Below, one piece after another: positions 41,577 through 53,355 of a stretch of DNA of 64,000 nt. Below the pieces are notes generated by a model. It did not search any database, was not told the origin of the DNA, and saw nothing but the letters and a program-made list of their open reading frames with translations. The translations under genes and the position numbers were made by a program. Source of the stretch: Candidatus Marinacidobacterales bacterium. Its GTDB lineage: Bacteria; Acidobacteriota; Vicinamibacteria; Marinacidobacterales; DATDRI01. Within the stretch, counting starts at the first letter, position 1; each line of letters begins with the position of its first letter. The DNA is taken from the NCBI GenBank assembly GCA_965219415.1, contig OZ244742.1, forward strand, positions 71,082 to 135,081. Reading direction: 5' to 3'.

Positions 41577-41592
41577 TGGCCTTGAATTTGCA
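41577..41592 (+). promoter_or_regulatory. Candidate sigma-54 (-24/-12) promoter of the nine-gene operon
   Basis: The sequence reads TGGCCT-TGAAT-TTGCA. The invariant GG and GC are separated by exactly 10 nt and the -12 element TTGCA is perfect. It lies 59 nt upstream of the first ATG (41651). rpoN is encoded in the same window. Confidence 0.45.
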
Positions 41593-41650
41593 CTTTGAGA
41601 TACCATGAGGGGTGCTCCGTTGGGGCGTCCACAGTGGAGAGGTACATCTT

Positions 41651-42625
41651 ATGAACGTCACAAAGAGCGTTGAGGGGAACGTGAGACTGGCTGGCTTAGC
41701 CATTCTGCTTACCGTGGTGGTGGGATGCTCGAGTCGTTCGTCGACGCCCTCCGTACCGTCGTTGCCGACGCCACCGTCTCCGCCTTCAGTACCGTTTCTC
41801 CCCTCTCCCCCTTCGACGACGCCACCTTCAAACCCGTCACCGAGTGAGCCTTCGACGTCCCCCTCCCGGGAAGAATCCAGCGAAGGAAAGGGAGCGGAAT
41901 CTGAATCGACGCCTTCCAGTGAAGATGGTGCGAAAGGTGAAGAGAGCGGGGACGGCTCGGCCTCGGGGACCGAAACGAGTGCCGAAGCCGGAGAGCAGCC
42001 TGGTGGCGGTCAGTCCAAAAGGGGTGAGGCGACCGGGTCCACACCGAGCGCCGCCGGGGCGGGCAAACTCGGTCAGGCCGGCTCGATGGGAAAGACTTCC
42101 GCAGGAACACCCCGGGCGGATGCTAAGTCCGGCGGTAGTTCGAAAGGCAGCGGAAGTGGACCCAAGACGACCGAAGAAAAACGCGCCGGCCTCGACAAAG
42201 ACTTGGACTCCTCGCTTAGCGAGTTCGACAAACTGCTCTTGAGCGAACAAGAGCTCTTGGAGCAGCAGCGAGAAGAGGCCGCAGCAGCGAGCGCTGACAG
42301 TGGTGACGGCGGGGACGGAGGAGAATCTGGCGACGGCGGTGCCGATGCTGAACGACGCGCCACCCAGGTCGCAGGTGGCACCGGTGGATCTCCAGATGCG
42401 CCCGCGGGAGAGCCGGCCGACTCATCTCCAGGCGCTCCCGTTGGAGGGGCCGAGGGTGACTCGGACAACGGTCGCGTCCCCCCCGACGTAGGCGACGGGA
42501 GCGGCGACGACATCGTGGCCCGGCAGTTGCGCGAAGCGGCCACACAAGAGGACGATCCGAAACTTCGTGAGAAACTATGGGAAGAGTACCGAGCCTATAA
42601 GCGAGGCACCAAGAAAGGGAGCTAA
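41651..42625 (+). CDS. Operon gene 1: lipoprotein with a long P/S-rich then acidic G/S/E/D-rich disordered region and a conserved-looking helical C-terminus
   Basis: ATG at 41651 with a GGAGAGG RBS. Signal plus lipobox MNVTKSVEGNVRLAGLAILLTVVVGC. C-terminus ..DDIVARQLREAATQEDDPKLREKLWEEYRAYKRG. Confidence 0.8.
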   Translation: MNVTKSVEGNVRLAGLAILLTVVVGCSSRSSTPSVPSLPTPPSPPSVPFLPSPPSTTPPSNPSPSEPSTSPSREESSEGKGAESESTPSSEDGAKGEESGDGSASGTETSAEAGEQPGGGQSKRGEATGSTPSAAGAGKLGQAGSMGKTSAGTPRADAKSGGSSKGSGSGPKTTEEKRAGLDKDLDSSLSEFDKLLLSEQELLEQQREEAAAASADSGDGGDGGESGDGGADAERRATQVAGGTGGSPDAPAGEPADSSPGAPVGGAEGDSDNGRVPPDVGDGSGDDIVARQLREAATQEDDPKLREKLWEEYRAYKRGTKKGS

Positions 42626-42628
42626 AGG

Positions 42629-51267: not shown

Positions 51268-52339
51268 CGTACTGAGTCAGTCCTTCTTGGACGCCATGAC
51301 CTGTGGCTTCGGTGCGGTGGTGCTGTTTTTCATGATCGTCAATGCCAGCTTCGGCAGGATCTCCGGGCGCATGACCGGGGAGCTCCAGGGCGAGGTCGAC
51401 CGATTGGAAGAAGAAGTCCTCGAGGGCTACCAGAACCTCGTCGAGGTCAAGAACTCGCTTCGGGTGATCGAGGAGGAAACCGTCGTCACCGCCGGACTCT
51501 CTCGCCGCCTCATCGAAACGCTCGAGGAGATCCGGGTCGAGCTTGCCACCTACCAAGACTCAACCGTCGCACAACGAGAGCACGTCAACCGTCTGAAAGC
51601 GGATTTGAAGTCTCTCGAGGAAGACGTCAAGCGACTGTCGGCGGCGGCTCCCAGCGAAGAGACTCCCGGCGATAAAATCCGGACGTTCGTCGGGGACGGA
51701 GATCGGCAATACCTCACTGGTCTCAAGGTGGGAGGCAGGCGGATTCTCTTCTTGGTGGATAGCTCCGCGAGCATGCTCGCCTCGACGATCGTCAACGTAC
51801 TGCGACGCCGGAATCTGCCGGACCATGTCAAGATCCGCGCCGACAAGTGGCAACAAACGTTGGCCACCGCCGACTGGTTGACCACGCAGATTCCCCGCGA
51901 ATCGAGCTTTCAGATCTACACTTTCAACACGCGTGTGAGCTCGGTGATCCCGGGCACGGACGGTGATTGGTTGGACGGCGGCGACCGAAAGGTACTCGAC
52001 GACGCGGTGCAGCGTCTTCGCGGCGTGGTGCCGCAAGGCGGAACAAATCTGCATCAAGCACTTCAATCGATCCGGAACCTGCGGCCGGCGCCCGACAACA
52101 TCATGTTGCTGCTGGACGGCCTCCCGACTCAGGGTCCAAAACCGTCCCGGCGGGGCACGATATCCGGTAAGGACCGCGTAAAGCTTTTCAACCAAGCGGT
52201 GAAAGAGATCCGATCGAAAGTACCGATGAACATCATCCTCTTCCCCATGGAGGGCGATCCGATGGCTGCTAGCGCCTACTGGAAGCTCGCTCTCGCAACC
52301 GGGGGCTCGTTCATGAGTCCTTCCCGGAACTGGCCGTAG
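51248..52339 (+). CDS. Operon gene 8: ExbD/TolR-like N-terminal TM anchor (with Asp), coiled coil and vWA domain
   Basis: N-terminus MTRRRINVLSQSFLDAMTCGFGAVVLFFMIV; compare the E. coli ExbD sequence TPFIDVMLVLLIIFMV. Asp15 codon at 51290-51292. Heptad-rich region of about 90 aa. vWA MIDAS motif ILFLVDSSASM. Overlaps gene 7 by 20 nt. Confidence 0.82.
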   Translation: MTRRRINVLSQSFLDAMTCGFGAVVLFFMIVNASFGRISGRMTGELQGEVDRLEEEVLEGYQNLVEVKNSLRVIEEETVVTAGLSRRLIETLEEIRVELATYQDSTVAQREHVNRLKADLKSLEEDVKRLSAAAPSEETPGDKIRTFVGDGDRQYLTGLKVGGRRILFLVDSSASMLASTIVNVLRRRNLPDHVKIRADKWQQTLATADWLTTQIPRESSFQIYTFNTRVSSVIPGTDGDWLDGGDRKVLDDAVQRLRGVVPQGGTNLHQALQSIRNLRPAPDNIMLLLDGLPTQGPKPSRRGTISGKDRVKLFNQAVKEIRSKVPMNIILFPMEGDPMAASAYWKLALATGGSFMSPSRNWP

Positions 52340-52341
52340 AG

Positions 52342-53355
52342 ATGAAGAAAAGAGCGAAGCGAGAAAGCGCCCTGACAGGGTTCAGCCTGTCGTTTCTGGA
52401 TTGTATTTGCTGTGGATTCGGCGCCATCATCCTGCTGTTGGTATTAACGAAGATCGGTGAGCCACGAGCGCTCGAGGCGCTTCGGATCGATCTCGAAGGT
52501 CTGGTCGCTCGCCTTCAAGAAGAGCTCTACGAGATCCGTGGCGAGACGAACGTTCTGAATCGCGAGCTCGTCAGCAAGGAGGAGCAGATCTCCAAAGAAC
52601 GGGTTCGGATCGCTCGCTTGCGAGGGGACTTCTCCAAGATTCGAGGGGAGTACGCGACGAGCAAAGAACTCTCGGAGATCAACGACATCGTCGAAGGTCG
52701 CCTGCTCGCCGCCCGGCAGGAGCTGAGCGAGGAGATGAAACGACTCCTCGGCCTCGCCCATCGACGCGACACGAAGGACGCCACGGTGGGAGGGATCCCT
52801 GTCGACAGCGAGTACGTCATCTTCATCATCGATACATCGGGCAGCATGCACAACTACGCCTGGTCGATGGTCAATCGGAAGATGAAAGAGACGCTCGACA
52901 TCTATCCCAAGGTGAAGGGTCTGCAGGTCATGAACGACATGGGCCAGCACATGTTCAGAAACTACGCCGGTAAATGGATTCCAGACACTCCGGGGAGGCG
53001 TCGCGTGATCCTCGACCGGCTCCGGACATGGTCTCCCTTTAGCAACAGCAGCCCGGTGGAAGGAATTACCCGTGCTATCAAGCGCTACGCCACCCCCGAC
53101 AAGAAGATCAGCCTCTACGTCTTCGGTGACGAGTTCACCGGACGCTCCATCGACGATGTCGTCAGAACCGTCGATCGGATCAACAAAGAAGATTCGCAAG
53201 GAAATCGCTTGGTTCGAATCCACGGCATCGGCTTCCCCGTGATGTTCTCTCAATCGGGATTTCCGGAGAACACCGGTGTGCGGTTCGCGACCTTGATGCG
53301 GGAGCTCTGTCGCCGCAACGGAGGCGCTTTCGTCGGACTGAGCTGGCGCCGCTGA
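52342..53355 (+). CDS. Operon gene 9: paralog of gene 8 (ExbD/TolR-like TM with Asp, coiled coil, vWA domain)
   Basis: N-terminus MKKRAKRESALTGFSLSFLDCICCGFGAIILLLVL. Asp20 codon at 52399-52401. Coiled-coil region. vWA MIDAS motif VIFIIDTSGSM. Starts 2 nt after the gene 8 stop. Confidence 0.82.
   Translation: MKKRAKRESALTGFSLSFLDCICCGFGAIILLLVLTKIGEPRALEALRIDLEGLVARLQEELYEIRGETNVLNRELVSKEEQISKERVRIARLRGDFSKIRGEYATSKELSEINDIVEGRLLAARQELSEEMKRLLGLAHRRDTKDATVGGIPVDSEYVIFIIDTSGSMHNYAWSMVNRKMKETLDIYPKVKGLQVMNDMGQHMFRNYAGKWIPDTPGRRRVILDRLRTWSPFSNSSPVEGITRAIKRYATPDKKISLYVFGDEFTGRSIDDVVRTVDRINKEDSQGNRLVRIHGIGFPVMFSQSGFPENTGVRFATLMRELCRRNGGAFVGLSWRR

Follow-up and report, generated by a model that had tools for sequence, protein, structure and literature searches.

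A nine-gene operon that may build a proton-driven trans-envelope machine around a 5:2-type motor, with an optional phospho-switch

What might a bacterium build from a MotA-like channel, two membrane-anchored von Willebrand factor A (vWA) proteins, a Ser/Thr kinase, a PEGA-domain protein and a degenerate Hsp70? The question is raised by nine consecutive genes (g1 to g9) in a 64,000-nucleotide stretch of a Candidatus Marinacidobacterales genome (GenBank assembly GCA_965219415.1, contig OZ244742.1, positions 71,082 to 135,081). This whole stretch is called the window below, and its own numbering is used unless a locus label precedes the coordinates. A first-pass annotation of the window had described the genes as an intact operon for a trans-envelope system that is probably energised by a proton channel, regulated by phosphorylation and different from the known systems. 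We propose, with a probability of about 0.55, that the operon builds a trans-envelope machine that is driven by the proton motive force and organised around a 5:2-type motor.

The basic claim of an intact nine-gene operon was confirmed by reading the window for open reading frames (ORFs). Nine consecutive, co-directional ORFs with zero internal stops occupy positions 41651-53355 of the + strand, and their spacing is as described: g3 and g4 overlap by 4 nt (46178-46181), g7 and g8 overlap by 20 nt (51248-51267), and a gap of ~160 nt precedes g5. The remaining intergenic gaps are 2-15 nt long, and ~450 bp of non-coding DNA lies upstream of g1.

The centre of the proposed machine is g6 (49022-49819, +), a channel subunit of the MotA/TolQ/ExbB family and presumably a pentamer. 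Its Pfam MotA_ExbB match (E 7e-14; 52.1 bits against a gathering cut-off of 22.9) upholds the channel assignment, and a profile search of the PDB returned TolQ as its sole relative (E 0.004). Invariant among the homologues are the motifs WAIPSIGFIGTVRGIG and AFNSTFIAL with their threonine residues of the second and third transmembrane (TM) helices, T189 and T222 (those of GTV and NST). In a crude hydropathy scan, two segments of g6 rose above the threshold, and a third around GFIGTVRG fell just under it.

The partners of this channel would be g8 (51248-52339, +) and g9 (52342-53355, +), each consisting of an Asp-bearing TM helix, a coiled coil of ~100 residues and a vWA domain. g8 matches Pfam VWA_2 (3e-7) and retains an intact metal-binding (MIDAS) motif (D171-S173-S175, T266 and D290). 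PDB sequence searches with g8 and g9 yielded coiled-coil noise only, which in g8 concerned residues 38-150. Although g9 has no Pfam match, it is paralogous to g8 over its full length (hhalign probability 99.5%, E 7.5e-23 over 312 columns; BLASTP 4e-14, with 29% identity across the N-terminal half), and its orthologue in the Thalassotalea locus L083 matches VWA_2 at 7.6e-4. The g9 protein has a DTSGS motif at residues 164-168, and the DxSxS pattern is invariant in both families along with the downstream Thr/Ser and Asp positions. The vWA assignment made for both proteins is thus carried by the Pfam match in g8, and by paralogy and the invariant motif in g9. Both genes are present in all complete loci. 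At L062:11334-13430, in a Sulfomarinibacteraceae metagenome-assembled genome (MAG), the two homologues read as a single ORF of 698 residues; a true fusion, which would be topologically awkward, is one possibility, and an assembly error or the loss of a stop codon are others.

The anchors of g8 and g9 begin with a short basic tail followed by a helix, SFLDxxxCGFGA, that carries a family-wide conserved Asp. Asp15 of g8 is invariant and Asp20 of g9, within its TM helix, nearly so, and neither helix contains a His residue. The helix resembles those of Escherichia coli ExbD and TolR, which we take to read INVxPFIDVM and INIVPLLDVL. The ExbD/TolR-like character assigned to the anchors is therefore borne out by this motif and not by the expected Pfam match: the isolated anchors gave no ExbD match, and PF02472 was absent from all nine products. 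Together, the homologies of channel and anchor support the suggestion of a probable energisation by protons.

We then asked how far the nine genes travel together. Synteny was mapped by tblastn, with the nine proteins of the window as queries, in 86 loci (labelled L001-L086; 84 in the main set and two added later), ~65 of which are complete. In every locus long enough to hold all nine genes (~65 of 86), g1 to g9 occur in the same order and on the same strand, which settles that the set exists beyond its host genome. The carriers are Acidobacteriota, Steroidobacteraceae and other Gammaproteobacteria, Desulfobacterales and one Gemmatimonadota MAG. Cultured carriers include Steroidobacter gossypii, S. 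agaridevorans, Peristeroidobacter agariperforans and P. soli, as well as the marine species Thalassotalea aquiviva and Parahaliea mediterranea. Individual families are large: relatives of g7 were found in 248 species when one genome per GTDB species was scanned (the Acidobacteriota among them being Marinacidobacterales, Vicinamibacteria, Thermoanaerobaculia and Holophagae), and at least 496 g7 homologues, more than 1000 g2 homologues, and 1350 g8 cluster representatives at 50% identity (more than 5000 proteins, many from cultured marine Gammaproteobacteria) were counted.

Conservation is strongest in the motor. The median identity is 67% for g6, the most conserved gene of the set, 63% for g9, 57% for g8, 38% for g7 and 37% for g3, and motor genes reach up to ~80% identity across orders. 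dN/dS, computed against three relatives, is 0.06-0.27 over all nine genes and lowest in g6, g8 and g9 (0.06-0.12; g6, 0.06), indicating purifying selection on every gene. This result replaces the earlier argument that broken neighbouring genes point to selection on the operon. The flanking genes and chromosomal contexts vary between relatives that carry the set. Co-inherited in a fixed order across several phyla, placed in varied contexts and evolving with low dN/dS, the nine genes are, by these comparative measures, a co-adapted assembly. Two of these contexts contain genes of separate interest. In L002, a 9.2-Mb Marinacidobacterales genome, genes for a DDE transposase and for a second Ser/Thr kinase, this one joined to Tricorn/PD40 beta-propeller domains, lie ~2 kb downstream of the operon (L002:15531-20719). 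In Thalassotalea, where the operon lies ~7.5 kb upstream, an ECF sigma factor gene is followed by RseA-like and RseB-like genes (L083:19582-21074); this vicinity to envelope-stress genes may be a coincidence.

The motor core is not entirely new. A comparative genomics study has described a TolQ-like gene linked to a heterologous pair of membrane-anchored vWA proteins ('TPH-vWA'), with a function not known and Idiomarina loihiensis as exemplar, and sketched the class mainly for Proteobacteria and Verrucomicrobia (PMC12204202, Mol Biol Evol 2025; section 8, Fig. 4c-d). Judged on the features described there, g6, g8 and g9 belong to this class: in every locus the tolQ-like gene is linked to TM-anchored vWA genes without tolR or exbD, the vWA proteins form a heterologous pair (g8 and g9), their anchors bear the TolR/ExbD/MotB-type Asp (D15 and D20) and lack the TolA/TonB SHLS, and g6 has the conserved channel Thr residues. 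The tolQ-like gene immediately precedes the vWA pair in that description; here g6 is followed by g7 and then by g8 and g9. AlphaFold3 models of the Idiomarina proteins place the paired vWA proteins' trans-pore helices inside a TolQ-like pentamer, with the Asp facing a ring of Thr residues (PMC12204202), and since they predict the same core independently, they support the motor proposed here. The published class covers the motor and vWA genes only; in the loci studied here the pair forms part of a nine-gene set in fixed order, and the range of the family extends to Acidobacteriota, Desulfobacterales and Gemmatimonadota.

The cytoplasmic side of the system would be formed by g3, g4 and g7. The g3 protein (43896-46181, +) is a Ser/Thr kinase (Pkinase, 3e-29) with intact GxGxxG, VxK, HRDLK and DFG motifs, followed by a TM helix (residues 314-332), periplasmic TPR repeats (TPR_2, 8e-8 and, in a second Pfam run, 1.8e-9) and a C-terminal beta-sandwich (CarboxypepD_reg-like, 0.0045), in agreement with the kinase, TM and helical-repeat architecture claimed for it. 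The frame is open from TTG 43848, but ATG 43896 is the more likely start, following the gene call in L001.

The g7 protein (49825-51267, +) consists of an Hsp70 nucleotide-binding domain (NBD) fold (residues 1-342), a linker and an FHA domain (residues 372-470; Pfam, 4.5e-10) that stands in place of the Hsp70 substrate-binding domain. Its AlphaFold2 (AF2) model (pLDDT 85.7) matches Hsp70 NBDs in Foldseek (E 5e-17, TM-score 0.70-0.74). The N-terminal 340 residues gave no Pfam match, PF00012 included, and no PDB sequence match, so that the claimed degenerate Hsp70-FHA fusion holds in fold and FHA domain but not in the expected family hit. The canonical phosphate-binding Gly-rich loops of Hsp70 are DLGTT and DLGGGT; ELNDTG and DLHLHR stand in their place in g7, and because of this replacement we treat the protein as a probable pseudo-Hsp70 scaffold. 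Its FHA domain has a canonical SR.H motif, present as GISRSHC.

The g4 protein (46178-48586, +) comprises an N-terminal domain, a TM helix (residues 151-169), five PEGA stretches and a C-terminal domain like formylglycine-generating enzyme (FGE)/SUMF1. The last two assignments stand as first made (Pfam PEGA, 3e-55; FGE-sulfatase, 2e-37). The FHA likeness of the N-terminal domain finds weak backing in profiles (Pfam, E 0.015; hhalign against the g7 FHA domain, 77.5%, E 1.9e-5; low-scoring PDB profile matches with several FHA domains among them), but the domain is degenerate and lacks the phosphothreonine-binding Arg/Ser/His. Presumably, going by human FGE, the catalytic, copper-binding CxxxxC would sit at the ...RGSSW....LR... 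position of g4. The catalytic Cys pair is missing from the window protein and 15 orthologues: the domain holds 0-1 Cys in 14 of the 16 proteins checked, and none at that position. Going by these residues, the g4 domain is not a catalytic FGE, and because the Cys pair is missing it is probably a binding module, as in GldK/PorK.

Hydropathy prediction agrees with the topology inferred by the first-pass annotation, in which the cytoplasm holds the kinase, FHA and Hsp70-like parts and the periplasm is faced by the PEGA/FGE and vWA domains and the lipoprotein. A single TM helix or signal peptide was detected in g1-g4, g8 and g9, and none in g7 except for a buried beta-alpha segment.

The kinase and FHA parts, however, are not shared by all versions of the system. 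The nine-gene order recurs in Thalassotalea aquiviva and Parahaliea mediterranea, and on another two distant contigs; it reads there lipoprotein, g2-like, TPR protein, PEGA/FGE protein, small protein, MotA-like, g7-like, vWA and g9-like. In L083 and L084, the two of these loci that were analysed in depth, the TPR protein (~500 residues) lacks the kinase, the PEGA/FGE protein (~700 residues) lacks the FHA-like N-terminal domain, and the g7 homologues (431-434 residues) have no detectable FHA domain. A g3 homologue without a kinase is also found in several Thermoanaerobaculia/Sulfomarinibacter lineages; six such lineages have likewise lost the SR.H motif of the g7 FHA domain, while others retain it, so that the co-variation is partial. 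Judged from this gene content, the nine genes make up a mechanical core, to which certain lineages have added the kinase/FHA layer. The claim of phospho-regulation consequently has to be narrowed: an intact kinase and a g7 FHA domain support it in the window, but the layer is restricted to certain lineages, both parts are missing from the marine gammaproteobacterial versions, and the FHA-like domain of g4 is degenerate.

Other parts are optional in the opposite sense. Proteobacterial versions carry two extra conserved lipoproteins of ~207 and ~220 residues, called x1 and x2; x1 directly follows g9, and x2 precedes g1 in Steroidobacteraceae but comes behind x1 in marine lineages (L083:12110-13527; L041:13-750 and 13678-14247; L084:12062-13449). 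Neither belongs to a Pfam family or has a homologue in the window or the Acidobacteriota loci. An M48 metallopeptidase gene follows the operon in three marine gammaproteobacterial loci (L083:13552-15012; L084:13455-14927; L086:13446-14930) and not in a fourth (L085); it has no counterpart in the window and may be a further accessory component.

At its outer end, the system appears to rely on g1, g2 and g5. The g1 product (41651-42625, +) is a lipoprotein with a signal peptide, a VVGC lipobox and a long, acidic, Ser/Gly/Pro-rich disordered region; the mature part has a net charge of -22. A start at 41577, as first annotated, is ruled out by an in-frame stop at 41606-41608. The open frame is 41612/41651-42625, and ATG 41651, with the Shine-Dalgarno sequence GGAGAGG 8 nt upstream, yields a standard lipoprotein signal ending in VVGC. 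The protein has no Pfam match and is alignable only in an internal helix and a C-terminal motif of ~45 residues, DDDIVARQLREAA..E.DPELREKLW.EYR.YK, which is near-invariant across phyla. The small secreted protein g5 (48747-49007, +) similarly has a disordered acidic linker, and in an alignment of 15 orthologues only its last ~20 residues are conserved, F.PSE......SFP(V/I)DI-COOH, with F82, P83, D85 and I86 invariant. Its hydrophobic N-terminus reads as signal-peptide-like, although the hydropathy scan does not flag g5. These patterns suggest that the C-terminal motifs of g1 and g5 are docking peptides.

The secreted 415-residue protein g2 (42629-43876, +; AF2 pLDDT 79) has no Pfam match, and a PDB sequence search gave a single marginal, irrelevant match (E 0.19). 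The best Foldseek matches of its N-terminal alpha/beta domain were the TolB N-terminal domain (E 1.4e-3) and LptE, with low TM-scores. The model also shows a helical hairpin of ~70 residues with a tip formed by two Gly-zipper-like hydrophobic segments (residues 300-333). Most other lineages carry a GC lipobox in their g2 orthologues, and together with the model this suggests that g2 is a membrane-associated lipoprotein.

Taking homology, invariant residues, g8/g9 pairing, synteny and selection as the starting points, we envisage the following mechanism. A g6 pentamer would surround an axle formed by the g8/g9 heterodimer, whose N-terminal helices would each bring a proton-binding Asp, as in TolR, ExbD and MotB. 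The axle would extend as a coiled-coil stalk of ~100 residues tipped by two non-identical vWA heads with intact MIDAS, and proton flow would turn or pull this stalk directly. Because no TonB/TolA-, ExbD/TolR- or OmpA-like protein is encoded, the plug proteins g8 and g9 would themselves have to be the transducers. The vWA heads could bind acidic ligands on the system's own exported parts, for which the C-terminal motifs of g1 and g5 and the TolB-N-like (lipo)protein g2 are the best candidates; the outer membrane may be where g2 places its Gly-zipper hairpin. The TPR array of g3 and the PEGA/FGE protein g4, both anchored in the inner membrane, would frame the assembly and probably contact the peptidoglycan, with the FGE domain acting as a non-enzymatic, FGE/lectin-like module. 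PEGA domains are regarded as peptidoglycan-associating (PMC7159879), which makes g4 the most plausible contact. From the cytoplasmic side, the pseudo-Hsp70 g7 may dock on the motor as an adaptor, and in the lineage of the window the g3 kinase could set phosphothreonine marks that the g7 FHA domain reads, gating assembly or activity. As its output, the machine would act mechanically on components of the outer membrane or the periplasm, much as Tol-Pal or Agl-Glt do.

Several observations weigh against this proposal. At the motor, g6 is a distant relative of TolQ, scoring 28.2 bits against an NCBIfam TolQ cut-off of 221, and it is the stoichiometry, the ion specificity and proton coupling, all protein contacts, the outer-membrane localisation and the output that we infer. 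Towards the outer membrane, the operon encodes no integral beta-barrel protein, so that this end of the system rests on lipoprotein predictions; the window's own g2 lacks a lipobox, and its similarity to TolB is weak (TM-score 0.17-0.19) and confined to the N-terminal domain. On the cytoplasmic side, the nucleotide-binding loops of g7 are non-canonical, the kinase/FHA layer is dispensable in other lineages, and no cognate phosphatase was found in the operon. Finally, an FHA loop reads GSHG in the window (50995-51010, g7 residues 391-396) and in L004, versus G(R/K)RG in most orthologues, and L003 keeps GRRG yet reads GISHSHC instead of GISRSHC; one canonical phosphothreonine-contacting Arg therefore varies within the clade of the window.

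How does this set compare with the known ion-driven and vWA systems? Pfam, NCBIfam and PADLOC searches with all nine products returned no system-specific family, and Pfam detected no TonB/TolA-like, OmpA/Pal-type, PP2C or MoxR protein, as the first-pass annotation had noted. Its broader view that no known system matches stands for Tol-Pal, Zorya, Bat, TerY-P and the type IX secretion system (T9SS), since the operon lacks the defining components of each; the system is nevertheless not wholly unrecognised, because its motor core is described in PMC12204202. In the literature searched for combinations of MotA/TolQ/ExbB, vWA, FHA, PEGA, FGE, Hsp70 and 5:2 motors, only that study touches the family, and no description of the full nine-gene system or of a tested function was found.

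With Tol-Pal the system shares a TolQ-family channel, an Asp-bearing partner helix, a trans-envelope layout and an operon with a lipoprotein, a TolB-N-like periplasmic protein and a TPR protein. It has no TolR, TolA, TolB beta-propeller or OmpA-like Pal (Pfam, NCBIfam), its plug is heterodimeric, and a coiled coil and vWA domain replace the periplasmic domain of TolR. T9SS (GldKLMN/PorKLMN) likewise combines an ion-driven motor, a dimeric subunit reaching far into the periplasm and a non-enzymatic FGE/SUMF1-fold protein encoded in the operon. GldK is the best NCBIfam match of the g4 C-terminal domain (9.8e-27), but the match covers the FGE domain only and scores 94.3 bits against a cut-off of 350, GldL, GldM and GldN are not matched, and g4 is anchored in the inner membrane by its TM helix and PEGA domains rather than forming an outer-membrane lipoprotein ring. 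TerY-P shares the vWA domain and Ser/Thr kinase, and Bat shares TM-anchored vWA and TPR proteins; PP2C and a cytoplasmic TerY-type vWA are absent here, as are the MoxR/AAA+ ATPase and DUF58 of Bat. With the Hsp70 chaperone ATPase, g7 shares the NBD fold and neither the phosphate loops nor the substrate-binding domain.

Agl-Glt, which the first-pass annotation had set aside, is a closer functional analogue than it allowed. There, the heterodimeric TolR-like plug AglQ/AglS sits in a TolQ-like pentamer, and GltG combines an FHA domain, a TM helix and a long periplasmic extension (PMC11761067); TPR scaffolds, the vWA adhesin CglB and outer-membrane lipoproteins complete the machinery (PMC11761067; PMC9946355). 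This logic, and the resemblance of GltG to g4, a likeness of architecture alone, raise the possibility that the operon encodes a surface-motility or adhesion engine in which the motor moves or unmasks an adhesin and the vWA heads or lipoproteins couple to the substrate. A gliding-type role has also been suggested for a related, SHLS-bearing family of vWA transducers (PMC12204202). We nonetheless consider such an engine unlikely. The operon shows no homologue of the Glt outer-membrane barrels, GltI, AglZ or MglA, and Pfam detects no CglB-like surface adhesin or MglA/MreB-linked gene. The vWA domain is fused to the plug here and carried by a surface lipoprotein there, and a tether of ~100 residues to the inner membrane would let it reach the periplasm but not the surface. 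In addition, Agl-Glt comprises at least 17 genes rather than nine, and the literature searched holds no motility data for the carrier hosts.

Two further readings move the emphasis away from mechanical work, and we rate both as very unlikely. The MotA-like channel could sense an envelope breach as in Zorya, with the kinase, FHA, vWA and FGE-like domains serving as sensors or thresholding devices of an anti-phage or conflict system, like the NTP-dependent conflict systems of Kaur et al. In line with this idea, g6 has a weak ZorA match (E 3.9e-4), the kinase matches many PADLOC kinase models, predicted conflict systems repeatedly contain vWA, FHA, PEGA and FGE-like ('FGS') domains (PMC7159879), and the chromosomal context varies between relatives, with a transposase near one locus. 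Yet the ZorA match is generic, no other Zor model is hit, PADLOC gives no system-specific match, and the nine genes encode no ZorB, ZorC or ZorD, nuclease or other effector domain (Pfam, PADLOC). The account of vWA conflict systems makes no mention of MotA or ExbB (PMC7159879), and the topology prediction puts the vWA domains in the periplasm instead of the cytoplasm. The distribution also speaks against defence: the motor genes are highly conserved with low dN/dS and no diversifying signature, each of the four cultured Steroidobacter/Peristeroidobacter genomes matched has the operon, it lies among housekeeping genes in L083, and a search of a plasmid collection with g8 gave no match. A Zorya-like defence role is therefore unlikely. 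Alternatively, the operon could encode a transmembrane signalling complex, in which the periplasmic TPR, PEGA/FGE and vWA domains sense an envelope or extracellular cue and report it through the kinase to FHA partners, the MotA-like protein being structural or ion-sensing. An intact kinase fused to a periplasmic, sensor-like TPR domain, a canonical g7 FHA domain and a pseudo-Hsp70 without canonical ATPase loops, which fits a scaffold role, would all suit such a complex. Conversely, marine Gammaproteobacteria keep the nine-gene order without a kinase or detectable FHA domain, and because such versions exist, phosphorylation signalling cannot be the conserved core function; moreover, the best-conserved parts are the channel and the Asp-bearing helices, and Pfam finds no transcription factor or other output domain in the operon.

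The boundaries of the operon were also assessed from its neighbours. An S9 prolyl-oligopeptidase/oligopeptidase-B-like gene (g10; 53383-55494, +; Pfam, 1.5e-110) begins 27 nt downstream, but by tblastn synteny no relatives other than the closest two, L003 and L004, share this arrangement, and it was rejected as a tenth member for this reason. Upstream, genes for an S49 (SppA-family) peptidase and a TPR_21-type TPR protein (38683-41200, -; Pfam) were rejected because they are divergently oriented and not syntenic in other genomes. Two neighbouring M16 peptidase ORFs with odd low-complexity termini (55692-58189, -) align in two frames to a single M16 protein of 949 residues in L001; a frameshift in one gene, the presence of two genes or a mistake in the assembly could each account for this. 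This is the kind of broken neighbour from which selection on the operon had been argued. The two-frame alignment is real, but pseudogene and assembly error are not separated by it, and the argument carries little weight, since the relatives were assembled from metagenomes and may contain assembly errors. A search of the entire window against Rfam gave no match and hence no riboswitch or known small RNA in the 450-bp leader, and promoter and terminator scans returned counts not above those of shuffled sequences.

To our knowledge, the 5:2 ion-driven motors that are understood are few, namely the flagellar stators, Ton, Tol, Agl, GldLM and Zorya, and each of them opened a field. What is newly defined here is the full composition, the phyletic range and the optional phospho-switch of a 5:2 motor-driven trans-envelope system. 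Our wider interpretation is held with a little less than even confidence: the nine genes may be all the components of a class of proton-driven 5:2 envelope machine that is widespread and had not been recognised before. In it, the axle heterodimer would transmit force to dedicated lipoproteins by way of MIDAS-peptide contacts, the rotor would have a pseudo-Hsp70 as its partner in the cytoplasm, and some phyla would have added a eukaryote-like kinase/FHA switch. If true, this would add to Mot, Ton, Tol, Agl, Gld and Zor a separate system that has a cellular function of its own. The family is large and conserved, can be studied experimentally in cultured hosts and is mechanistically unusual, with a fixed and unusual parts list. 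As a defined unit with invariant residues and optional modules (kinase/FHA, two lipoproteins and M48), it allows mutants and pull-downs to be designed concretely. It would offer a natural case of a plug protein acting as a periplasmic transducer, which bears on how rotation or piston motion is converted into force at the outer membrane, and possibly an example of Ser/Thr phosphorylation gating a 5:2 motor.

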